The notes: generated by a model from the sequence alone, not told the origin. Shown: positions 10,249 through 63,915, counted from the stretch's first letter. The stretch is 64,000 bases of DNA from Owenia fusiformis (GCA_903813345.2 CAIIXF020000001.1:3720001-3784000); one strand, 5' to 3'. Translations and numbers: made by a program.

Positions 10249-28753
<18,505 letters not shown>

Positions 28754-44200: not shown

Positions 44201-47200
44201 ATTCCTCTGCTCGAAACATTGAAAACAAGTAATTCTGGCAAATTCTTCTTTGTAGGCCTATCAAGTTCGTCCATCCATAATCTTCTTTGATGAGATAGAT
44301 GGCCTTGCCCCTGTGAGATCCAGCAGACAGGACCAGATACACAGCTCAATCGTGTCCACTCTCCTTGCCCTCATGGATGGCCTGGACAGTCGTGGAGAAA
44401 TAGTTGTCATAGGAGCAACCAATAGAATTGATTCCATAGATCCTGCTCTCAGAAGGCCAGGAAGATTTGATCGAGAATTCTTATTCCCTTTGCCATCTTT
44501 AGAGGTAAGTTTGTTTTGAACTGGAAATACATGTATCTTAAAGGACACACTCAGTGTATGCTCTTGGTAAATCTTAATAGAGTTAATGTGATTTTAAGTG
44601 TTATTCTATTTTATTGTATGTATTCTTATAAACTGTTGAATTCTCTTAATTTTCAAGGCAAGAAAGCAGATCCTACAGATTCATACCAAAGAATGGAACC
44701 CAAAACTGTCTGATTGCTTTTTGAGTGAAGTTGCTGAGAGGACAGTAGGTAAGTAAATATGTCTTGCATTCTTGTTGTTACGCCTTGACAGTGCCTCAAT
44801 CTAGTTAATGATATTTCACTAAGCATACTTTTTGATTTAGTAGTTTCACTTATATCCTTCATATGTTTCTCATTACAGGTTATTGTGGAGCAGACATTAA
44901 ATCCTTATGCACAGAATCAGCCTTGCATGCTCTCAGGAGACGCTACCCTCAGATATATACCTCAAATGAGAAGCTCCAACTAGATGTTACCTCCATAGAT
45001 CTAACTGCCAAAGACTTCCATACATCTATGCTAAACATTGTACCCACAGCCCAGCGCTCTGTTACCTCTCCTGCCAGGGCCCTGTCCGTTACCATTGAAC
45101 CATTGCTCAGGGTTACATTTAATAAGACAATGGAGTCTCTCAGAAGGATGTTTCCACCAGCTCTTGCTAAACTTGCCAGTTTAGACACACCGGGTATGTA
45201 GCTTAGATGCAATCTCTATAAACTAGAAGTTAAATGTGAAAACAGCTTCTTAAGTGAAAGATTTGTACATGAAATTAAGACATTGATGATAACATCTGCT
45301 TCTCACATACATGACTACTCATCTTTTATAGCACCTAGTGGTTCAAAGGATGGAGAAGGGGATGCTGCTAATAACAGCAGTTCGGGCAGTGAAGATGATG
45401 AAGATGCGCCATCTATCTATGACGCATCCACCCAGGGAAAAGGACGTAAAAGACGCATTACTAATGAACTCACAGCTGGTCCATTTTTGGATTTCACAAA
45501 GTAAGTATTTAAAGTATATTGTATGTAACAAAATCATATACAAGTTATTGTATTGATCAATTCTATTATATTTTGAGATCTATGTAAGACGCAATAAATA
45601 GTTTAACTCCCAATTTGCAATGAGTGGTTATCTGCTTCCAGAGCTGCGTACAGCACTCCTACAACATACAGACCTCGGCTCTTGTGTACTGGCCTTCCAG
45701 GTCAAGGTCAGAGCAGCCATCTTGCCCCTGCCATCTTACATCAGTTTGAGAGACTTCCTGTCCATATCTTAGATCTGCCCTCTCTATATGCCAACAGTGC
45801 AAAGACACCAGAGGAGGCTTGTGCTCACGTATGTACTGTATTTATTATTTATTCAGTAGGAAGCTTGTGCTCACGTATGTACTGTATTTATTATTAATTT
45901 GGTAGGAGGCTTGTGCTCACATATGTACTGTATTTTTTTTTCTCATATGACTAACCAAGATACAGCCATCTTTACCCCATGCAAGATATTGCCATCTTTC
46001 ATCTTAAAAAGTCACACGTGTAAGATGAGATTTACTTGTGACATCACCGGTCTATAAACATCAACAACATAGCAACAAATACACCGTTGCTACTAGTATC
46101 CATGCTCATTCTACAAAACTAAGCTGTGACGTCATAACGATGGAGCTTTGTTGCCTCGTGTATCCATGTATTTTCTACAATATTGTTATGACGTCATAAC
46201 AATTGAAAGATGAAGTTCCATTAATCTGAAGCTATTTTGCACCCAGTTTTGTCATGAAGACGTGAAAATAAAGCATAATACAGAGTCATATGAGAAAAAC
46301 TTTCTTGTACTCGTACCTGTGCAATATCGTCCATTCTTGACTCGCTTTGATAATGTTTCTTTATCTCGTCTGCGACTCGATAAAGAAGAATTATCAAAGC
46401 TCATCAAGAATGGACGATCTTGCACAAGTACTCATATAAGAACCTCTATTTATTAATTTGGTAGGTTATGTATTGCCATTGCCATTAGGAAAGGATGTTT
46501 CAGAACAAAAATGTTGGCACATTTTGAGCCAAAATGTGAATTGTGTATGAATAGAATAGTATAGATGTTCAGTTTATAAGCAGACTTACCAAATAGCTAA
46601 AATATTAGTTGTTGGTTTTCAGATTTTTCAAGAAGCAAAGAGGACATCGCCAAGCATTATCTACCTACCTCATGTCAACCAGTGGTGGGATATAATACCA
46701 GAGACACTAAAGGCCACATTCTTGGCTCTCCTGCAGGACCTCAACCCTTCCTGCCCCATTCTACTACTGGCCACCAGCGAGGAACTCTTCCAACATCTAC
46801 CTCATCAAGTAAGATCATTTTTCAGGTTGTAAATTATCAGTAGCAAAAATTGCTTCAATAACCACAACTGGTTTAATGTGGCGTAAATAAAACTATAACT
46901 TGTACTTGAATATTACATACTCTTTGGGATATATGCTACGTCATGGGTGTAGATTTTGCAAAAACAATACTACTGCATAGTTATATCTATCACCAATTCA
47001 TGAGTTAATATGTTTTGTTTGCGGTTGGTTGGGATTGCAACCTTGAGCAGTTGCTGTTTCTCTAGAATAAAAATGACCACTTAAATATGTCGAGAAATTA
47101 TGAAAGTAAAAATTAAAAGTATCTGTTTATTCATACCAAAATGTTTTAAAAAATGTGCACTCTTGTGAAGTGAGACTCGTGTCACATAAGATTTATTATT

Positions 47201-50200
47201 TACTCATGCTTCAGATTCAACTGCTGTTCAGTGTTAACTCAGGGGAGGTCATTCACATGTACAATCCCAATGCTGATGAGAGAAGAGCATTCTTCCAGGA
47301 CCTATTGCTCAATCAGGCTTGCAAAACACCAAAACGAAAACTAAGAAAAAGTAAGTATTATCACAAATTAAGTTTGAAACACTACCGTACACATACATGG
47401 TCTTTCATGTCTCACTATTTTAATTATCAGGAATTTTTTTATAATCACAAATTGAAATTTGTGCAAATAAGTATGATAATATAGAACTGATTTGCACCTC
47501 TTGCCCAGGTTACCAAAATATTGAAATGTTTCTTCCAGCTAGTAGCCTAGAGGTCCTTCCCTTAGCTCCACCCCCTGAACCAAGGAAACTTTCCGAAAGA
47601 GAAATGAAACGCCTCCATAACCAAGAAGAGGCTACACTCCGTGAATTACGGCTCTTTATTCGTGACGTCATTAACAAGTTGGCCCGAGACAGAAGGTTTA
47701 ATATCTTTGCAAAACCTGTGGATCCAGAAGAAGTATGTTTTAGCACTTTCCATGAATTAAAGCTACACTGGTGTTATATTTATTGTTGCCTCTTCTTTTG
47801 CTAGTATTTTGGGGAGGCTGGGTACATTTTTGATTTTCTGACCTATAACCTTGTGTGTTAAGTCTTGTTCAAGCATTTTCAGCTCTACCGTTTTGCTCTT
47901 TAAAGTGCAATATTTATCATGGTGTGCTCTGTAATATATGTAAGGTTTCATTATGATATGAAACCACTCAAAACAACACAGACACCGTTTATTTGCTGAT
48001 TGATTCTCTAACTTTCCAGGTAGATGACTATTATGATGTGATCAAAACACCAATGGATTTATCCACGATGATGTCAAAGATTGACTTACACAAGTACCAA
48101 ACTGTCAAAGATTTCCTAGATGATATAGATCTGATCCGCAGCAATGCTTTAGAATACAACCCAGATAGACATCCTGAAGGTAAGTGAAATATGTAGTATT
48201 TAGTAATATTTTAGAGTACAACCTGGACAGACACAACTTACACAAGTGGGTGAAATATCCAGCATGCCCATTGCCCTAATTTAGCTATGGAAAATTTAAG
48301 GGAAGAACCATGTCTCTAAAAGTAAAGCATTTTAATTGAGAATTGGTTCCATTTCTTCCTATGAAAACCTAAAGCTGAATAGCTATTGTGGGGAGTTGCT
48401 GTTGTTCTAATTTCTGACTCTGACACAGTTGATTTTAAATTCAAATAGGCAAAACAAGCATTTGTTTGATTCTACAGTACTTGAGATTTATGTAAAAAGT
48501 GAAACAAACTAAACGACAGCAAAATGTTACCATATTTGATCTGTTTATTGCAGATAAGGCTGTGCGCCACAGGGCATGTGCACTCAGGGACCTTGCACAC
48601 TCCATAGTTGATGCAGATCTAGACAGGGACTTTGAACGACAATGTGAGGAGATCGCTGAATCAAGGGAAAAACGAGGTGTGCAGCCACTGTTTTTTCGTT
48701 TTTGTCATTATTACACATGTATTTACACATCACCTAAACGAATCATTTATTAGCTAACAAACAGAAATCTAAATCGTCAAGTTACAGATAATTATATTCA
48801 TAAAAAATTTGTCATGTATTAAATTCAGGTACATTTGTGAATTGATAAATTCAAAGTAATTGCTATTTTTTTTATAATGCATCCATTTAGGAATTGCCCC
48901 GAACCTAGTTAACTACATTGACTTAGTCTTCTCTTTACCCATAAATATATTTCTCTATTGTTTTCATGTAATACAACTTTCGAATGTACCAAAGGAATAA
49001 GATTTAATAAACCATGAAAACATTTCAGGTCCTTCTCTTCCTGAGACTGCCCCTGCTTTCTACCATGTAAAACCAATACAGAACCCCCAGGCCTCACAAG
49101 CCCCTAAACCACCCCCAACTATACCCCAGCCAGACAGATTCTCTCGTCGAACCCGGGGGTTGAACGCTATTCAGGAAGCCCAGGAAACCACTCCATCTAC
49201 CTCAACAGGTGGCGCTACTACTTCACATCAACGCTCACACCCAGCATCTGCCCCTGTAATACGATCTCGCATACATACCCCCGGTAAAACCCCACTGACT
49301 ATTCCAAAACCTAAAAAGCAAAAGAAATGCATATGGGCATCATCGAGTAGAAGAAATAAAAGGAGAACTCACTGGGCTAGTCGTTTTTGGGCAAAAAGAC
49401 GTGCAGAAATGGCTGAGAATGAACCAGAAGTAGACCAGGGTATAGAAATTGATGATGGCATGGATATTGATGAACAGGATGAAACCAAAGATTTGAACAC
49501 AACTGAAGAAATAGTCATTCTTGACAATGATCTCAATGAAACCATAAAGACTGCAGGTACATCTGAAACCACTGCTGATGTATTAAAACCATTACAAATA
49601 GACACCTCAAATAAAGCAACTGACATTAAAGAATCAGCATTAAATTCGCCAAGTACTCGATCTAAGGGACTATCCCCAGTAGCTCTTTCCCCAAATACAC
49701 GTTCCAGAGCTAAGTCCCCGATTGCTCAATCTCAAGGTTGTAAATCACCAGGAGGCCATTCTCCAATAACAAAGTCTCCCCGATCTCTGCGAGCCAAGTC
49801 ACCAATTGGGTCACAGAGAGTACAGACAATTATAGAGAGTGATCTATTAATAAAAGACTCTGAAGATTCCAATGATACCAAAGCAAGCTCAGGGACCACA
49901 ATTTCCAGGGATGACAGCGGTATTTGTAGTGCACAAGAGAGTAATGGAGAAGTCCTAGAAAAACCAAATGAACCACAGGTAGGTTGATGCATGCTTGACA
50001 TTTTTGCATATTCCCATGAACTGCTTCACTCCAGTAATTATAATAGCTGGCAACGAGTCATCTTTTCTAGATGTTGTGTTTCAGAATCAAAAGTATATTA
50101 AATAGAGATTTTCATTATAAAGACCATGGTCCTTTGATTGGATATTGTTTAGGTTTAATTCACAAAAAGTGATTTTGACTGAAGGTTATCAATCATCCTA

Positions 50201-51198
50201 TATTCCAGGAAGAAGTCAAGCAAAAGGAAGCTGAGGTGGACGTTGTCATGGCAACACCACAGACACATGAGACACCCAAGAAAAATAATGAAGTGACTGA
50301 AGTTTCATCTGAATCTAAAGGTAGTGTCTAAAGAACATGATTTGGGGAAAACTCCAAAATTTCTACTCACCAAAATATAATCTCTAACTTCTAACTTTTT
50401 CTTGCCACTTGATCAATTACCAAAAAACAATGTGTCGTGGATACACATACTTAATATGCAGAAGTAGCTTTAGTGCTTGTCTGTAACAGTAGATGTCAAA
50501 TGTTATTTGCAATATTATACAACAAATTGTACAGCCTTAAAATCAAGACCAACATTGAAACAAAGCAAAATACTGATTAGTTGAACAAAGGCCTGTAGAC
50601 ATTTGGGATTAACAGTTATATGTATACTCTTTATATTTCGAAACTTAGAAAAGCCAATTGTTAAAACTGAAATTGAATGTGATTATTGCTCTTTCTCAGA
50701 GTCCACACCAGCAATGAGGATGACACGAGGACGCCTGCACCAAAAGGAAGTTGAGAAGGCACATGAGCGGTTATACCTTCCTGCTCAACCTTTTGTCATT
50801 GATCGAGACAGACTGAGGTACATACTAGAGCAGACTGTACATATCACCAAGGACTTCATCATTGAAGACCTAGAGAGGGTTCACAGTAAATATAGCCAGT
50901 GTATATATCAACATAGGAAGGCTCATGATAGGACCCAGCTGTTAGTGGTAAGTAAATTGTAAACGTCGATGTTAAGGTCGTTTTGCACTTCCAGAAAATT
51001 GAAAAAAAAATTGGAGGAAATGTCAGTAACCAACACCAGAGTATAACAGCTAAATGTTGAATTCTCAAATGCTAAACTGACTTATCTGAATAAATATCTC
51101 TGTAATTTCATTTATTTATTATATGCAACACTAGATATGTCATTCTTGATTTTCTCTTCCAGGATCTGGAAGAAGCAATGAATATGTTTGCAAAATGA
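38258..51198 (+). CDS. ATAD2: ATPase family AAA domain-containing protein 2 (AAA+ ATPase plus bromodomain), about 1539 aa
   Basis: 25 coding exons from 38258-38368 to 51163-51198 (incl. 42884-42995, 43372-43513, 43634-43782, 44256-44504, 44879-45193, 47539-47732, 48020-48179, 49029-49978); total 4620 nt with consistent phases. Walker [31 protein letters not shown], Walker [27 protein letters not shown], bromodomain FAKPVD...PMDL...NALEYN. Confidence 0.96.
40163..40228. repeat. 33-bp tandem duplication in an ATAD2 intron
   Basis: AACACCTATAAATCACCTTTAATAAGTTCATAC occurs twice in tandem. Confidence 0.9.
40955..42071 (+). mobile_element. Helentron/HINE-like element interrupted by a hAT MITE
   Basis: T-rich start, TTATCCCAC...GGGAGGGATT, degenerate CTGTCCATCTGT microsatellite, internal core repeats and terminal GGTGGGATT...ATTCTAGTT. 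Boundaries approximate. Confidence 0.5.
41321..41781. mobile_element. Non-autonomous hAT MITE
   Basis: TIR TAGGGGTGAGACGA / TCGTCTCACCCCTA; perfect 8-bp TSD CTTTTAAA; subterminal GAGTCGA/GAATCG arrays. Confidence 0.92.
45812..45935 (+). repeat. 46-bp tandem triplication spanning an ATAD2 exon-intron junction
   Basis: AGG(A/G)AGCTTGTGCTCAC(G/A)TATGTACTGTATTT-type unit repeated with donor positions 45829 (GT), 45875 (GT) and 45921 (AT). Confidence 0.9.
45936..46450. mobile_element. Crypton-like non-autonomous element with a terminal long hairpin
   Basis: About 135-bp imperfect palindrome at 46303-46440 centred on CTCGTCTGCGACTCG; repeated CTCATATGA/TCATATGAGAA motifs; interrupts the third 46-bp unit. 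Family label from memory. Confidence 0.55.
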
Positions 51199-56621: not shown

Positions 56622-56755
56622 TGTATCTCCATTCCACCAGAGTATTGTACACACTGTATCTCCATTCCACCAGAGTATTGTACACACTGTATCTCCATTC
56701 TACTAGAGTATTGTACACACTGTATCTCCACTCCACTAGAGTATTGTACACACTG
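56622..56755. repeat. 33-bp minisatellite, 4 copies, overlapping the stop codon of the TIR gene
   Basis: Unit TGTATCTCCA(T/C)TC(C/T)AC(C/T)AGAGTATTGTACACAC. Confidence 0.95.
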
Positions 56756-59700
56756 CACATTTCTGAACATGCACCTGTTGTACACCAGTCTGCCTGCTTC
56801 CCATACTCCCATGTGACATATTTCGATTTGTGGGATTAGTTCGTTGATCACGTCCAACGGCATAATCTGGTATAACTAGTGGTTCACTGTTTGAACTGTA
56901 TCTATCACCACTTGATAAAGTCGATTGAGAATGGTTGGAATTTTTAGCATTAAGTTGTGTAATCTGGGGAGTCATTTCAACAGATTTGCGAGGTGAAGGG
57001 ATAGCATATCGTGATAAGCGCTGGATAATCTCAGCATAACGCGATTCAAGATCTGCATGAATACCTGATCCTCCATGACCCCCTATACCTGCAAATATAA
57101 TCAATTATTGTGTTCAGAATATGTTAGTGTGTGTCTACAGAAAAACAGAAAATCGAGTAAAACCAGTGGATACTGAATATCCTTTGTGGAAATACTAAAT
57201 GAAAACACATTGCTCACATTCACTGAATAAATCAGACATAATTTTATTCCATTCGTATTTATTATTCAAAGTCACACATAACAAAATGTCAGCATAATAG
57301 GATGATGACATCACTCATATTGGCATTCATGCTAGTCAAACCCCAATTATCCATGTGTGTATGTGCAAAGTGATTCTTTAAGGAAGAAATTAGTTAAATA
57401 TGACACATTAACTCCACATATTTGGACATCCATTCCCAAACAAGGCATGAACATGACAAAATATCACCACCTAATTGGTCACAATATTGTGAGTTCAAAT
57501 CTGAAGTCAGATTTGAACATCTGAGAACTTTTAGATGAAGCAAGTCATTTTGAAGCAAGTTGAAAAACACTTTTTGACGTTTCTTTACCTTGGGAAGGTC
57601 ATCGAAGGTCATATTTGAATTTTTGAGAACTTGAAGATAATTTTGAAAAACATTGGTCAATTTTAAGCAAATTGAACAGAGACCTCTTTGACATTGAGAA
57701 GGTCATTGAAGGTCAAATCTGAAATCAATCTGACTTGTAGATGATTTTGAAAAAACAATTGGTCAAATTGAAGCAAGTTGAAGACCTTTTTTGACCTTGA
57801 GAAGGTCATTGAAGGTAAAATCTCAGATGTAAAGGCAGATTTGAACTTCTGAAAATTTGTGAATGATTTTGAAAAACACTGAATCAGTTAAACAGAGCTT
57901 GTTAAGTTATTGGAAGTTGTACGAATTTGTGACAGAAGCAAGATACCAGACGCCACCCAACGTCACAAAAAATGGAGACCATAACAATATGTCACCACTT
58001 TTGGTGCTGATATAAAAATGTAAAGTCATTTGCACAAATAGGTCAAATAATATCAAACTAACTGTATACTTCTAAAAATTACTCTTATTCACTCATTATG
58101 CACCTCATATATCTCCTTAGATCTTCTTATATACATGTATCTTTAACTATTGAGACCTTATACTATTGTCAGTGGTAGAATCAGACTAAATATAAAGTAG
58201 TATAGTGCATGTAACTTGGCCTACCTTTCATATCTACATAGACCAGCTGAGAAAAGACAAGGGACATGCCACCTGGTGGGGGCCAGGGGACTCTGTCAAA
58301 CATCACTGGAATGATAGCTTTATGTAGTAGATCTGCGAGACTCAGCTCTCTGTTGCAGTGATGGGACACTATGTACTTGGGGCTAACACATGCTATAACA
58401 ACCTAAAATAAAGTATAGAAAAATATTATTCAAAAGTTCCTCACAAAGAATTGCTAAAAAATGTTCTTGATTCGAAAAAATAGTAGTGTTTATAGACACT
58501 CTTATTCCTTAGAAATATTCTACCTTGTATGAATAAATATAACATTTTCAAATAAGAATATATGCATACATATAACGAAAATAGACATTTAATCAAGCAA
58601 CTGAAAAAAGTGATGCAAAATTAGTTCAACTTGTTTTGTGAGAGCAATTTTTTTATTTGCCAAGTGCACCAATAATTCATTATTTCAAATAAAAATCCTT
58701 GACTTCAATTAAAGACACATTTTACATGTAATCTACCTTTGCATTTCTTATGCCCTCATCAATTTTAGCGTTAAGTTGGTCTCCACCTCCCATTTGTCCA
58801 ATATCCATCCAGCAATTGTAGCCACTTTTCTCCAGTCGATCTCGCAATCCCGTCACCTCATCTTGGATGTCCCATTGGTAGCTGATAAACACCTGAGGGG
58901 GCTCAAGCTCTGCTTCTGCAACAAACCCAATGTTATTAGGGTATACAGTAAAACATATTATATCTGAACACCACTGGTGCCGGCAAAGAGTGTTCTGATT
59001 TTGATCCACACTACATTTAGTGCGAATAGTTTACACTTCCAATGAAAGTGGTTCTATACTTCTGGCTATTAAGGGACATAACCAATATAACACAATTATT
59101 AATAAAAAAAAAAAGTATATTTTATAAGTATATTTAGAAGAAAATCAGGAAATCAAATCTTCATTTACCTATTTTTGGGGATACTTTTAGGTTGTTAATG
59201 TTTCAAGAAATGTTGAATGTCTTACAATTGGTTAGGTTTGGGGCACAAATTAATAAAATCTCCTTAGAAACATATTGGACAAAATGAAAACTGGAATGAG
59301 AATAATGGGCCTAACCAACGTCAAAATGACTGTGATAACGTCAAAGCAATAATGACTGTCGTCAGAACAGTTCACAGTGTAATTTCAGGTCATTATCTCC
59401 AGAAATGAAAAGTTATATCTTATCCCCATTAACCAAAAGTTTTCAAAAGTTGATTGTATAATTTGTATATATTCATTGATTTCTTGAAATTGTCTTTTTA
59501 TTGTGTGTGTAGTTTTCTTCTTTACCAAACAGAGGAATGAGTGGGGGGTAATTGGAGACACATTAGATAAAACACATTTGAATTTTTAAACAACAAAATT
59601 TGGACTTTTTTATTTACTTTTAAATATATTCAGACTTTGTAGAGCTCAGAAAATGAGCCTTGTCTGTAAATTTCCTGAACTACTCTATTAGTAACTTATA

Positions 59701-62700
59701 AAAAAATTATACATATACAAATGTATTACAAATATTTTCTTAAAATCTAATTACCTCTTCCTTTTTGAATAATCTCCACGATGTCATCGCGAAACATTTG
59801 CTCCAAGTAGGAAACCATCATATCAATGGAAAGTGATGTGTTTCCACTAGTTATTATCCAATCAGCAAGCAGCATTAGACCAGGGTTGAGATCATCGTTA
59901 AACTTGTCGATTTTGAACTTTTTATATCCTAAAAAATAACATTCTTTTTAAACTGTATTTTAAAGACACCTTCTTGAGTGAACTCATTAATAATAGAAAA
60001 GAAGATCAAGTGGACAGTTTTATACAAAATTATGACTTATGAAAGTGACTAATTAGTTAAACACATGCACATGTATAATTATGAGGTACAGGGGATAGTT
60101 GACGTATAATCCTTATAAGGTAAAATTCATTAATTTGATTATATTGAACAGAACGTAAACCCGCCATGTCATCTATAACAATTAATATTTATGTGTCACA
60201 TATACAAGATGTCCATAAAAAATCACACTGGTCCAGTTTCATACTTTTACATCTATCTACCAATTATCCTCATATTTGCAAACAACACATGATAGAGTCA
60301 TTATATTAGAATCTGCCACCAGAGATGATTGCTCAAGTATACATATACAATTTAATAAGGACTTCATTCATAAATCTTATATGGTCATTTTGATTTTGAT
60401 TTTGAATTTCTATCAGATTTGATCATACAGATAACATAATATATCAACTTTCCCAGACCCTTGTAATCTGATGGTTTAAGTGACTTTCTGTGAAAATGGC
60501 AATACAGAACTTGATATATTTAGGTTCTGGGAATTTCCAAGGACCAGGTATGAGGAAAACAATTAAGAAACCATCAAGTTACTTTATAAATATAAAACAA
60601 CATCTGACAACCCATTATTGAATAAATGGAAAAAAAATCATAATACTTTGCATTTAATGAAATTGATTCCTAAAGTAGAAATTAAGTAACTCATCTTTCT
60701 AAACAATACCTAGAAACATCATTTCGGTTTTGGAGGTAATACTAAGTTAATTGTAGACAGTAGAGAGTTCTTGAACACTCTGTACTTGAACATCAATGCA
60801 ATCATAATCCTAATTTGGCTGTAATCACGACGAGAAAATGTACGCTATTGATGCTATTGATGACGGTTGATAAATCAACTATTAACAACCTCAAACTAAT
60901 CTGCGTAATTATCTATCACAACCTGTCATTCATAATCATATGCAGTTTATTTAAAGCGAAAGAATTTATATATAGACCAAGGAACTAAAAATAATATTTC
61001 TCCATTTCAAGCGAGTTATTAGTATATGCGATGGTTGAAGACATGACTCACTTACAATAAATCATCTAATAATTGGGAACATAGCATACAATAATTAGGA
61101 CTCTTAAAAATGGTACTGAAGTAAGCAAGTCAACCTCCACATTGGAAAGTTGATTTTAAACTCCAGATATTTTAGGCTTAAGAAACTGAGATTTTATCTA
61201 AGTGTTGATCTATAACATTGAATTTCTCAAACTAACCTTCATATTATTAGTTATTATTATATCAAATTATTTAGGTCAACTAAAACAGCTTTAATTCAAA
61301 CTTGATTAAAAAGGATTGGAAAAACTCTTTTTTCTAATTGAAGGTCAACTGCAAGTTAAAATTAGAAGAAATATGATAACTTTATTTAGTGGGATAACTA
61401 ACAGACAGATGGCCTCTTATACAGAGACATAAAGATTAAATCAACAATGAAAATGCTCAATTTAACATGGACTTTAAATGTACATTGTAGTATAATCCCC
61501 CTTCTTCTCTTTTTTAATACATTTGTGGGGCTATTATGACCCTTGGTGACTCATGAATAGGTGACCTGAGGTCAAGGTCATTCCTAGGTCAAAAGTTAAT
61601 ATTTAGGTATTTGGTGATTTAAGGACTTTGGGGCTGCAGAGAAGCTTGGCTACACATGATTAGGTGACCTGAGGTCAAGGTCAATGTTCATGGTCAAGGT
61701 CATCTCAAGATCAAAGGTCAATATCTAAGTATTTGGCTTTTTAACGACCTTGAGGGCTGCTGTGACCCTTGGCGACCAATGATTTGGTGACCTGGGGTAA
61801 AGGTCTTTCCAAGGTCAAACGTCAATATCTAGATATTTGGCATTTGAAGACCCTTGAGACTTATGTGACCTTGAAGACCAATGATTGGGTGACCTGCGGT
61901 CAAGGTCATTCCAAGGTCAAAGGTCAATATCTAGGTATTTGGCATTTGAAGACACTGGAGGCTGCTGTGTCCTTGGTGACCCATGATTAGATGACCTGAG
62001 ATCAAGGGCGATGTTTATGGGTCTAGGTCATCTCAAGGTCAAAGATCAATATCTAAATATTTGGCGTTTTAACGACTTTAGGGGCTGATGCGACCCTTAG
62101 TGACCCATGATTGGGTCACCTAAGGACAAGGTCATTCCAAGGACAAACGTCAATATTTAGGTTTTTTGGCATTTGAAGACCCTGGGGCTGCAACCCTTGG
62201 AAACGCATGATTTGGTGACCTGAAGTCAAGATCAAGGTCTATGGGTCAAGGTCATCTCAAGGTCAAAGGTCAGTATCTATGTATTTGGTGTTTCAAGGAC
62301 CTTGAAGGATACTGTGACCCTTGTCATCTCAAGGTCAAGGGTAAATATCTAGATATTTGGCCTTTCAAGGCCTTTGGATAAGTTCACCTCAATACAAGAA
62401 TCAGTCTAGGTCAAACACTCAATAAACAGGTATTTAGCATTTTATGGGGGCTGTTGCCATGTGGGGCTGTTGTGACCCTTGGTGACTTGGATGGGTAGAT
62501 TGCTAGAAACCCTTTGCATTCGTTTGACTTCGCTTCTCAAAAGAGAGCTTCGTCTTTACTCTTTCAGTTTCCAATAAATCTTTGAACTCAAACAGCGAAT
62601 CAGAGATCGTTGTCAGATACAGAGAACTTTCTATATATGGTCATTTTCTCTGACATAATCGCATATTTATTGTGCACGCATTAAGCACTTGTTCTTCAAG

Positions 62701-63915
62701 CTCGCTGATTGGTTGAGAATAGGTTAGTGTGGTAGGTGTGAAATGATTTAAGACCAGTGCTATCACATGCATCAATCGTGGGGGCTGCTAAACTGTAATA
62801 TAGTCTATACTAGACAGAGGGTAGTTTTTAACTAGACTCTGCGTGCAGGGTAATTGCTTGTGTATATTAAAATGGAATTACTGCCTTCCTCATTAACGAG
62901 GGGTCAGAAAAAACTCCTTTGATCAGCAACAGAAATATCTGTAACCATGCCATTACCTAATTTCTTTGCCAATGCAGTCCAATCCTGGCCCTCAGATCCA
63001 CCATTTAACATCTTAGCAGCTCCTTTCACCCATGATGGCAGTTCAGGTCCTTTCGCTTCAATGTTCCCATCAGCCTCCTTTATAACTGTGTCGGGAATAA
63101 TTGGTCCTTCAGTCACTGAAATACATATGAAAGAAATATGTATAGACATATGATGTTATTAATCAGTTTCAAGTAATCAGGCAGTAGAAGTGGAATCTAT
63201 AATCAAGACACATAATCATAACCAGTTCATAAATCACACATTTCAATATCATTGTGAAGATAAATATGAGCTGCATCAATATTTCACTCCTTTCTGCCTA
63301 GTTTGAGATTGCATTTCTAAAGACTCAAGGTTTAATTACTGATAACATGTGGTTTTGAAAGATAATGGGACGTTGTTGAAGTAAACAATTATCTTGTTTA
63401 ATAGACCATCCATTTCAAATCAATCCATCAAGTAGTTGGATTGGAAGACAAGACAAAGCAGACAAGAATTTGGGAAGAAAAATCCAAAATGGCCACTTTA
63501 AAATCCACGCAACATACCAGTTTGCCCGGAAATACATTGTTAAATTATTACTTCCCTGTGTTAATGACCTCCAATCATAAGGTTCTATCTTCTATACTCT
63601 GTGTATGGACAGGCAAAGGAATAATCATCATTTTATAGCAACCAAAGAATCCTTAAACTTACCAATCGGAGAAGGTTCTGGAAACAATTTTCTATATGGT
63701 GCCGTCTTGATTCGCTTGTAATCGCAACATACAATCTTGTTTGCCAAACATTCATCCAGGTCCAAGAAATGTATACAGGAGATATCAGAGCATGAAATGC
63801 GTTTATGTTTGGTGCACTTCTTGTCACAGGTGCATTCTATGCAGGCTTTGTAAGATATCCTCCTCATCCACATTTCTTTCAGCTCAAAGAGAACACTATC
63901 TAGGAAATTTCGCAC
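56736..63915 (-). CDS. 3' part of a multidomain protein: Cys-rich COR-like region, Death domain, TIR domain, CaaX (CTIL); gene continues beyond right edge
   Basis: Exons 63915-63663, 63115-62957, 59928-59755, 58915-58737, 58402-58225 and 57088-56736 with consistent phases. Death-like DWTALAKKLGY...LLADW...YLEQMFRDDIVEII; TIR VFISYQWD...CWMDIGQMGGGDQL..KIDEGIR...VIACVSPKY..SHHCNRELSLA...IIPVMF; ends CAVCTIL*. The COR assignment is tentative. Confidence 0.85.
57275..58018 (-). mobile_element. Helentron/HINE-like element with GAAGGTCA-rich core repeats
   Basis: Tandem core repeats (TTGAGAAGGTCATTGAAGGTCAAATCT) at about 57540-57880; the end near 57930-58018 is shared with the 25478 copy. Confidence 0.55.
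61528..62490. repeat. Satellite-like tandem array of about 100- and 123-bp monomers rich in AGGTCA
   Basis: Roughly 8-9 copies of GGGCTG..GTGACCCTTGGTGACCCATGATT.GGTGACCTGAGGTCAAGGTCA..CAAGGTCAAAGGTCAATATCTAG.TATTTGGC; the long monomers carry an extra GGTCAAGGTCA block. Confidence 0.85.

Follow-up and report, generated by a model that had tools for sequence, protein, structure and literature searches.

The stretch of DNA analysed here, referred to as the window, comprises 64,000 nucleotides of the Owenia fusiformis genome (GCA_903813345.2, CAIIXF020000001.1:3720001-3784000), is AT-rich with a GC content of 0.30-0.40, and provides the numbering for all coordinates given below. The subject of this study is the interval 56736-63915, where six open pieces on the minus strand bear the peptides quoted in an earlier description of the window, made by a model from the DNA alone (hereafter the sequence-only reading), which had proposed a spliced open reading frame (ORF) with a Cys/His-rich segment, a Death domain, a TIR domain, a linker and a terminal CTIL. 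A word-indexed protein search using the first of these pieces identified, at 100% identity, a 1278-residue 'unnamed protein product [Owenia fusiformis]' (P0002, hereafter the Owenia protein); the four matches obtained from nine candidates in that search were this protein and three mollusc relatives. Alignment of the protein to the window by tblastn placed residues 847-1278 on six exons with 98.8-100% identity. The six exons, spliced using a script that demanded GT..AG borders, gave a translation identical to residues 848-1278, which terminated in ...QKCAVCTIL followed by a stop codon and contained no internal stop codon. All of the proposed elements were present, and the interval was confirmed as the 3' half, that is the last six exons, of a spliced and expressed Owenia gene for a 1278-residue ROCO protein.

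The exons, all on the minus strand, are lettered A to F in the direction of translation. Exon A (63663-63915; residues 848-931; GT..AG borders, tblastn 100%) encodes the last helix of a putative COR-B followed by a conserved Cys/His cluster, whose codons from C875 to C911 and for Y/H913 lie at 63718-63834; this cluster would be a zinc-binding insert that closes COR-B. Exon B (62957-63115; residues 932-984), identified by tblastn, a contig loose end and the structural model described below, encodes a linker and the first Death helices, the remainder of the Death domain being encoded by exon C (59755-59928; residues 985-1042), as indicated by the Pfam Death match and by a six-helix bundle in the model. 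Exons D (58737-58915; residues 1043-1102) and E (58225-58402; residues 1103-1161) encode the two halves of a TIR_2 domain, and each was recognised singly by Pfam, at 44.8 and 35.4 bits respectively (cut-off 28); exon C alone scored 18.5 bits, under the Death cut-off of 22.6. The betaA strand (FISYQW) and the BB loop (WMDIGQMGGGD) are specified by exon D, and the alphaC helix (SHHCNRELSLA) and a WPPPG motif by exon E, where the codon for E1121, which aligns with the catalytic Glu (E208) of the enzymatic TIR protein AbTir, is located at 58346-58348. Exon F extends from 57088 to 56736 with its TAG stop codon at 56736-56738; its coding part (56739-57088; residues 1162-1278), identified by tblastn and contigs, encodes a GGHGGSG loop, the alphaE helix, a linker of about 90 residues and the terminal KCAVCTIL, the codons for C1272-A-V-C1275-T-I-L occupying 56739-56759.

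Splicing was examined in public sequencing runs. Each of 14 runs of the same organism held 18-23% of the sampled words of 56760-60000; none of these runs is recorded as RNA, the kind of each run is a guess, and only joins bridged by contigs were used. Contigs were examined from four runs belonging to three studies. The join 57085>58222 (exons F-E) was found in all four runs, and the joins 58400>58735 (E-D) and 58915>59755 (D-C) were each found in three of the four. On the plus strand the skipped intervals have CT..AC at their borders, corresponding to GT..AG in the direction of the gene. A single contig of 1076 bases spans exons F, E, D and C, and a contig loose end at 59932 leads on into the end of exon B. 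Nine variants were found within exons, and every one of them was synonymous.

Domain architecture and the Cys/His segment

Searching the whole Owenia protein against Pfam identified a Neuralized NHR domain (residues 46-145, 89.2 bits), a Roc domain (57.1 bits, cut-off 27), COR-A (residues 566-709, 70.8 bits, cut-off 35.3), Death (residues 968-1040, 29.9 bits, cut-off 22.6) and TIR_2 (residues 1051-1161, 88 bits, cut-off 28). The match to Roc is split in two by an insert of some 150 residues between the P-loop, near residue 190, and the DxxG motif at 396. The order of the protein is NHR, Roc (split), COR-A, a putative COR-B with a terminal Cys/His cluster, Death, TIR_2, a linker of about 90 residues, and CxxCaaL. 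Roc is followed directly by COR, as in ROCO proteins, and since both domains lie ahead of the part encoded in the window, to its right, the guess of the sequence-only reading that a ROCO GTPase would be found upstream was right; the NHR domain is an addition to that guess. COR-B was matched by Pfam below threshold only (19.5-23.1 bits against a cut-off of 27), in four of 25 relatives and in protein P0132.

All PDB sequences were compared with a profile built from 21 proteins of the family, which matched the NHR1 domain of Drosophila Neuralized (E 1.8e-45), C. tepidum Roco (E 2.1e-23), LRRK2 (E 1e-20), the Death domains of NRADD (E 2.3e-13), p75NTR (E 1.3e-12) and MyD88 (E 2.3e-6), and the TIR domains of Cat1, AbTir, PdTIR and SARM1 (E 1e-6 to 8e-5). 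In the Roc domain both the P-loop (GQDRVGKTS) and WDFAGQ are present in Owenia, and the P-loop pattern GxxxxGKT and DxxG are kept in most orthologues. An AlphaFold2 (AF2) model of residues 728-1200 (mean predicted local distance difference test score, pLDDT, 81.6) contained a COR-B-like part, a six-helix Death bundle (model residues 232-318) and the TIR domain, and Foldseek matched the model to the Roco COR domain (3dpt_A; E 6.8e-5, 205 columns, TMt 0.43).

Among known proteins, DAPK1 resembles the Owenia protein in having a Roc-COR tandem followed by Death, and the Pfam Roc model is named after DAP kinase. In DAPK1 a kinase domain and ankyrin repeats precede Roc-COR-Death, whereas no Pkinase or Ank family was found at E <= 0.01 in the Owenia protein or in P0003-P0005, and the Owenia protein has instead an N-terminal NHR domain, a TIR domain after Death, the Cys/His cluster and the CaaX end.

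The Cys/His cluster comprises nine conserved ligand-like residues (C875, C877, C881, H884, C889, C894, H896, C903 and C911) together with position Y/H913; in alignments of 21 and of 70 sequences, these Cys/His positions either do not vary or show conservation of at least 90%. Exon A matched no Pfam family above cut-off; a VWC match at 15.2 bits (cut-off 27.6) was dismissed as a chance Cys-pattern match. An exhaustive phmmer search with exon A against 1.84 billion representative sequences gave 70 matches, 49 of them at E <= 1e-10. The Pfam scan covered the 25 long sequences among these 70, and 22 of the 25 possessed COR, Death and/or TIR_2, including 11 with the full NHR-Roc-COR-A-Death-TIR_2 set, while the remaining three were a Cys-rich repeat protein, a retrotransposon fusion and a protein without any family. 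As 22 of the 25 relatives scanned are COR/Death/TIR_2 proteins, the Cys/His module appears to be restricted to the NHR-ROCO-Death-TIR family.

In the AF2 model the Cys/His segment follows a long COR-B-like helix and forms short strands and helices (pLDDT 84-91); exon A folded alone gave a pLDDT of 86.8. Comparison of the latter fold with 48,161 representative chains yielded only two at Z >= 2, both from the C. tepidum Roco COR domain: 3dpt_B (residues 881-940, Z 2.6, root-mean-square deviation (rmsd) 2.9, 52 aligned) and 3dpu_B (Z 2.4). Since both of these weak matches indicate the same place, the segment is read as a Cys/His-decorated C-terminal end of COR-B, which agrees with the resemblance to the end of COR noticed in the sequence-only reading. 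The segment probably binds zinc. A two-copy complex prediction of COR-B and the Cys/His piece with four Zn scored 0.04 and 0.02 against a mark of 0.32 and gave no evidence either way, and a search of the ESM Atlas with exon A returned no usable match.

Proteins of this architecture have been catalogued in silico yet are uncharacterised. In excerpts of a sea-anemone immunome study, proteins of Strigamia and Crassostrea gigas are described with 'neuralized' replacing kinase and SH3, together with Roc/COR, Death and TIR (PMC5094078), and Aplysia LOC101861518 is drawn as 'MyD88-like' with ROCO domains in the portions seen of a second survey (PMC9334734); what those excerpts offer for NHR-Roc-COR-Death-TIR proteins is domain cartoons only. 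The terms CaaX and NADase are absent from the text of PMC9334734. The full-text literature searched yielded these two in-silico surveys only and no functional study or prenylation report, and no paper in it combined Roc-COR, a TIR domain and NADase. The sequence-only reading knew of no characterised protein with this architecture; the architecture itself had already been recorded in these surveys. The Saccoglossus orthologue is named 'neuralized PATS1' at NCBI. Bivalve TIR proteins were reportedly classified by Gerdol et al. in 2017 (the 'ecTIR-DC' families), in a survey that may include the NHR-ROCO family. As far as the literature searched extends, four elements are new: a conserved lipid anchor with two signals, the reappearance of this anchor in the double-TIR paralogues, the Cys/His cluster that closes COR-B, and a TIR domain that has kept the Glu and lost the Trp.

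The C-terminal CaaX motif across the family

The Owenia protein terminates in C-T-I-L, with Cys at position -4, an aliphatic a2 residue and a terminal Leu, as in substrates of the geranylgeranyltransferase-I (GGTase-I) type. The linker that precedes the motif, described as Ser-rich in the sequence-only reading, does exist and is only moderately rich in Ser (14 of 91 residues). In orthologues, which occur at full length and 40-66% identity in many invertebrate phyla, the linker ahead of the CaaX motif is 82-135 residues long and poorly conserved.

The motif itself, by comparison, was retained in 17 of 21 aligned family members, the other four being one alternative isoform and three records marked partial, and in 31 of 36 sequences of a larger pool with the GGHG motif, 30 of which end in CxxCaaX. 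A search with the part of the protein encoded in the window had 183 matches at E <= 1e-10, of which 120 were covered; among the matches listed, 41 of 44 proteins with the Cys/His cluster have a CaaX end. Exceptions across the pools were mostly partial records, with one alternative isoform and one fused model. Within 80 CaaX ends, drawn from pools that include isoforms and close species so that the counts overstate independence, X is Leu in 71, a2 is I/L/V/M in all 80, and a further upstream Cys is present in 79. The CxxCaaL motif was found in annelids, nemerteans, molluscs, rotifers, a priapulid, myriapods, chelicerates, echinoderms, hemichordates and amphioxus, and is conserved over at least eight phyla, which bears out the expectation that the CaaX end would be shared by orthologues.

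A precedent is provided by the human OAS1 isoform p46, an otherwise unrelated innate immune sensor that is prenylated through an identical tetrapeptide: according to excerpts of PMC8357416, CTIL is necessary and sufficient for its geranylgeranylation and is needed for endomembrane targeting. The comparison holds for the anchor only.

A second set of proteins (P0141-P0201; 800-1500 residues) was composed of an unrecognised N-terminus followed by Death, TIR_2 and TIR_2, and was found in echinoderms, hemichordates, amphioxus, molluscs and the annelid Dimorphilus; the S. purpuratus member is named 'MyD88-like protein L1'. These paralogues share about 40% identity with the Owenia protein over the Death-TIR cassette, have the same TIR subtype (FISYQW, MDIGQMGGGD, NCxxE) and mostly possess CaaX ends, but they lack NHR, Roc and COR, have two TIR domains, and carry a polybasic signal in place of the upstream Cys. 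Among the matches listed, 57 of 63 such paralogues have a CaaX motif with Cys at -4, the mean number of Lys/Arg in the eight residues before the motif is 3.26 compared with 1.09 in the ROCO type, and the upstream Cys is present in only five of 47 paralogue CaaX ends. A typical paralogue terminus is Lys-rich and then CaaL, for example KKKSK-C-a-a-L.

Textbook membrane targeting of Ras and Rho proteins uses two kinds of signal, in which a prenyl group is combined either with a nearby palmitoylatable Cys or with a polybasic stretch. The occurrence of both types of second signal in sister families provides strong comparative support for real prenylation, and the anchor in the polybasic paralogues suggests that tethering by prenylation may be a general, overlooked rule for many invertebrate TIR proteins.

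Two further observations concern these sequences. A 33-bp tandem repeat (56622-56755; 4.1 copies, 96% matches; Tandem Repeats Finder) overlaps the end of the coding region, and transcript-like contigs pass through it. As its first copy holds the last six codons (AVCTIL) and the stop codon and the other copies lie in the 3' untranslated region, the CaaX-coding end seems to have been duplicated downstream. In addition, a MetaClust protein of 1874 residues (P0095), 63% identical over the part encoded in the window, contains two COR-A matches and two Death matches ahead of one TIR domain, and may have arisen by tandem duplication or represent a fused gene model.

The TIR domain and the proposed membrane module

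The nearest solved TIR domains by sequence were those of AbTir and a related bacterial TIR (E ~1e-7), followed by Cat1, PdTIR, Hydra TRR-2, TcpB and SARM1 (E 3.7e-4), and the MyD88 TIR domain was absent from the PDB sequence matches at E <= 1. In HMMER alignments the catalytic E208 of AbTir corresponds to Owenia E1121, which is located in the model helix 389-400, that is alphaC. The position proposed for the catalytic Glu in the sequence-only reading (codon 58348-58346) was therefore the right one with respect to AbTir, while its equivalence to SARM1 E642 was reached through AbTir only, SARM1 itself being matched at E 8.1e-5 and 3.7e-4. AbTir R151 corresponds to T1064 and AbTir W204, the Trp of the WxxxE motif, to H1117, and both positions are variable in the family: the residue at -4 from the Glu is Trp in none of 82 ROCO-type motif matches and Asn in all 66 paralogue matches.

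The fold of the TIR domain was compared with solved TIR domains, giving Z values of 15-17.6 and an rmsd of 2.2-2.9 over 123-138 residues. Z was 17.6 with SPARTA TIR-APAZ, 17.2 with Hydra TRR-2, 16.7 with SARM1, 15.9 with RUN1 and 15.7 with MyD88; as enzymatic and scaffold TIR domains fall within about two Z units of each other, fold ranking was rejected as a means of discriminating between the two.

Two family-specific motifs hardly vary between phyla, namely WPPPG (residues 1142-1146, after betaD) and GGHGGSG (residues 1164-1170, before alphaE). WPPP is also present in 28 of 63 Death-TIR_2-TIR_2 paralogues among the matches listed. We know of no explanation for either motif from solved TIR domains.

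The protein shares with MyD88 a Death domain followed by a TIR domain in the same order. However, it is not a short adaptor: some 930 N-terminal residues including the GTPase, as well as the lipid-anchor motif, are added in a protein of 1278 residues with NHR, Roc and COR, the Death domain is nearer to NRADD/p75NTR (2.3e-13) than to MyD88 (2.3e-6), and the TIR domain belongs to the TIR_2 type and has a BB loop rich in Gly. With SARM1/TIR-1, AbTir, PdTIR, Cat1 and SPARTA TIR-APAZ it shares the TIR_2 sequence type and fold and residues corresponding to the catalytic Glu, betaA Ser and betaB Asp, but not the Trp of WxxxE. SARM1 is regulated by an ARM domain that senses nicotinamide mononucleotide and nicotinamide adenine dinucleotide (NMN/NAD), whereas the Owenia protein has no ARM or SAM domain and would be regulated by Roc-COR. 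The distinction from both MyD88 and SARM1 that was drawn in the sequence-only reading was thus upheld.

Based on these features, the following mechanism is proposed. Cys1275 would be geranylgeranylated by GGTase-I and, after removal of -TIL and methylation, Cys1272 would be palmitoylated, so that the Death-TIR end would be tethered to the cytosolic face of a membrane, with the linker of about 90 residues as a flexible connection. The NHR domain would bind a protein ligand, and Roc-COR would act as a nucleotide-dependent switch, through a change between monomer and dimer or a conformational change as in other ROCO proteins; switching would gather the Death and TIR domains into a higher-order signalling assembly by Death-Death and TIR-TIR contacts. 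The gene model and its splicing, the domains, the conservation across invertebrate phyla and the fixed position of the CaaX motif are directly supported, and the interpretation of the sequence-only reading, a GTPase-gated, lipid-anchored Death and TIR module, is supported by these comparisons. The most likely output of such a module, to which we assign a probability of roughly 0.5, would be adaptor-type signalling at the membrane. ROCO GTPases (LRRK2, DAPK1) and TIR proteins (MyD88, SARM1) are central to disease and immunity, and here the two are fused in a conserved protein with a lipid-anchor motif; an anchored switch of this kind would offer a naturally occurring example of Death/TIR output at the membrane under the direct control of a Roc-COR GTPase.

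Several points weigh against adaptor-type signalling by a membrane-anchored GTPase switch. For the 847 N-terminal residues, encoded to the right of the window, the annotated protein is the only source. The G4 motif of the Roc domain (residues 489-494) is THRN in Owenia and roughly every second orthologue, the others having THRD, which makes the nucleotide specificity uncertain, and Asn in place of the guanine-specifying Asp may indicate a changed nucleotide preference. (THRN occurs in Owenia, Tubulanus, Octopus, Asterias, Branchiostoma and others, and THRD in Dreissena, Lottia, Liolophura, Physella and Ornithodoros.) As the nearest solved Death domains are those of NRADD and p75NTR and not that of MyD88, recruitment of an IRAK-like kinase is conjecture. 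To these are added the overstated independence of the CaaX counts and the TIR domain itself: its closest PDB sequence relatives (AbTir, PdTIR, Cat1, TcpB and SARM1) cleave NAD, and Owenia S1054, D1080 and E1121, the counterparts of AbTir S140, D167 and E208, are each at least 90% conserved.

These last points favour a serious second possibility, in which anchor and switch are the same but the TIR domain would be an effector enzyme that cleaves NAD+ or a related nucleotide upon GTPase-driven clustering; the protein would then be a membrane-localised executioner or a generator of a second messenger, like SARM1 and bacterial TIR proteins, and not an adaptor. We consider it a plausible reading, though not the leading one. 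According to excerpts of PMC11374754, Ala changes at S140, D167, W204 and E208 of AbTir each block NADase activity, and the first, second and last of these residues are the three kept in the family. The best PDB sequence matches are NAD-cleaving TIR domains (E 1e-7 to 4e-4), Foldseek ranks TIR-1/SARM1 first, and the TIR domain shows very strong conservation, both between phyla and within the paralogous families. The BB loop, GQMGGGD, is Gly-rich and of the bacterial/SARM1 type, unlike the TLR/MyD88 type, which contains Pro. On the other hand, many scaffold TLR TIR domains also retain the alphaC Glu, scaffold TIR domains are nearly equal in fold (TRR-2 17.2 and MyD88 15.7 against 16.7 for SARM1), the equivalent of AbTir R151 is not conserved, and the WxxxE Trp is missing throughout. 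In the same excerpts W204A inactivates AbTir, although the matching change in TcpC is without effect, and the Trp is described as less conserved in TIR domains that are non-catalytic or non-cyclising (PMC11374754). A kept Glu alone need not amount to NADase activity, and in this family the Glu is present and the Trp is not.

A broader form of the enzymatic proposal, which we regard as rather doubtful, would unite the NHR-ROCO proteins and the polybasic-CaaL double-TIR proteins in an ancient geranylgeranylated Death-TIR class, extending from annelids to amphioxus and seemingly missing in vertebrates, whose NCxxE TIR domain would be a nucleotide-cleaving or signal-generating enzyme at the membrane, the ROCO branch being switched by Roc after sensing of a ligand by NHR. 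If true, this class would stand next to TLR/MyD88 and SARM1 as a third TIR effector system of animals.

Far less probable is that the protein is soluble and not lipidated, its C-terminal CxxC being a metal-binding or redox pair that, for instance, completes the Cys/His cluster. The odd number (nine) of conserved Cys/His ligands in the cluster would suit such a role, as would the conservation of about ten terminal residues, beyond the CaaX motif alone. However, the Cys lies exactly four residues from the end despite a poorly conserved linker of variable length, a2 is always I/L/V/M and X is mostly Leu, the paralogues have a single Cys at -4 after a Lys-rich stretch and no CxxC, and orthologues of the oyster type have moved the upstream Cys (SCVCTIL) while retaining CaaX, all of which speaks against this reading. 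Finally, the idea that the spliced ORF results from faulty annotation or belongs to a decaying pseudogene, to which the automatic naming of the protein record and the overlap of the tandem repeat with the last codons might point, deserves hardly any credence in view of the canonical-border joins in contigs of four runs from three studies, the exclusively synonymous variants, the uninterrupted frame and the full-length orthologues.

Repeats and other genes in the window

Two introns of the gene contain tandem arrays, at 61539-62322 and 57576-57823, with periods of 102/224/328 bp and 104 bp, respectively. The summed contig depth over 57670-58020 exceeds that of the exons by orders of magnitude, so that this interval resembles an abundant dispersed repeat with transcription at other sites.

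Further open frames were located on the plus strand. An exon-like frame at 15289-15681 matched Pfam PI3K_C2 (39.3 bits), and the left part of the window thus probably carries a phosphoinositide 3-kinase gene. Frames at 47445-50962, which had no Pfam match at E <= 0.01, look like the bromodomain and acidic tail of an ATAD2-like gene, and an open frame ahead of them at 44836-45201 matched an AAA+ lid domain (37.2 bits).

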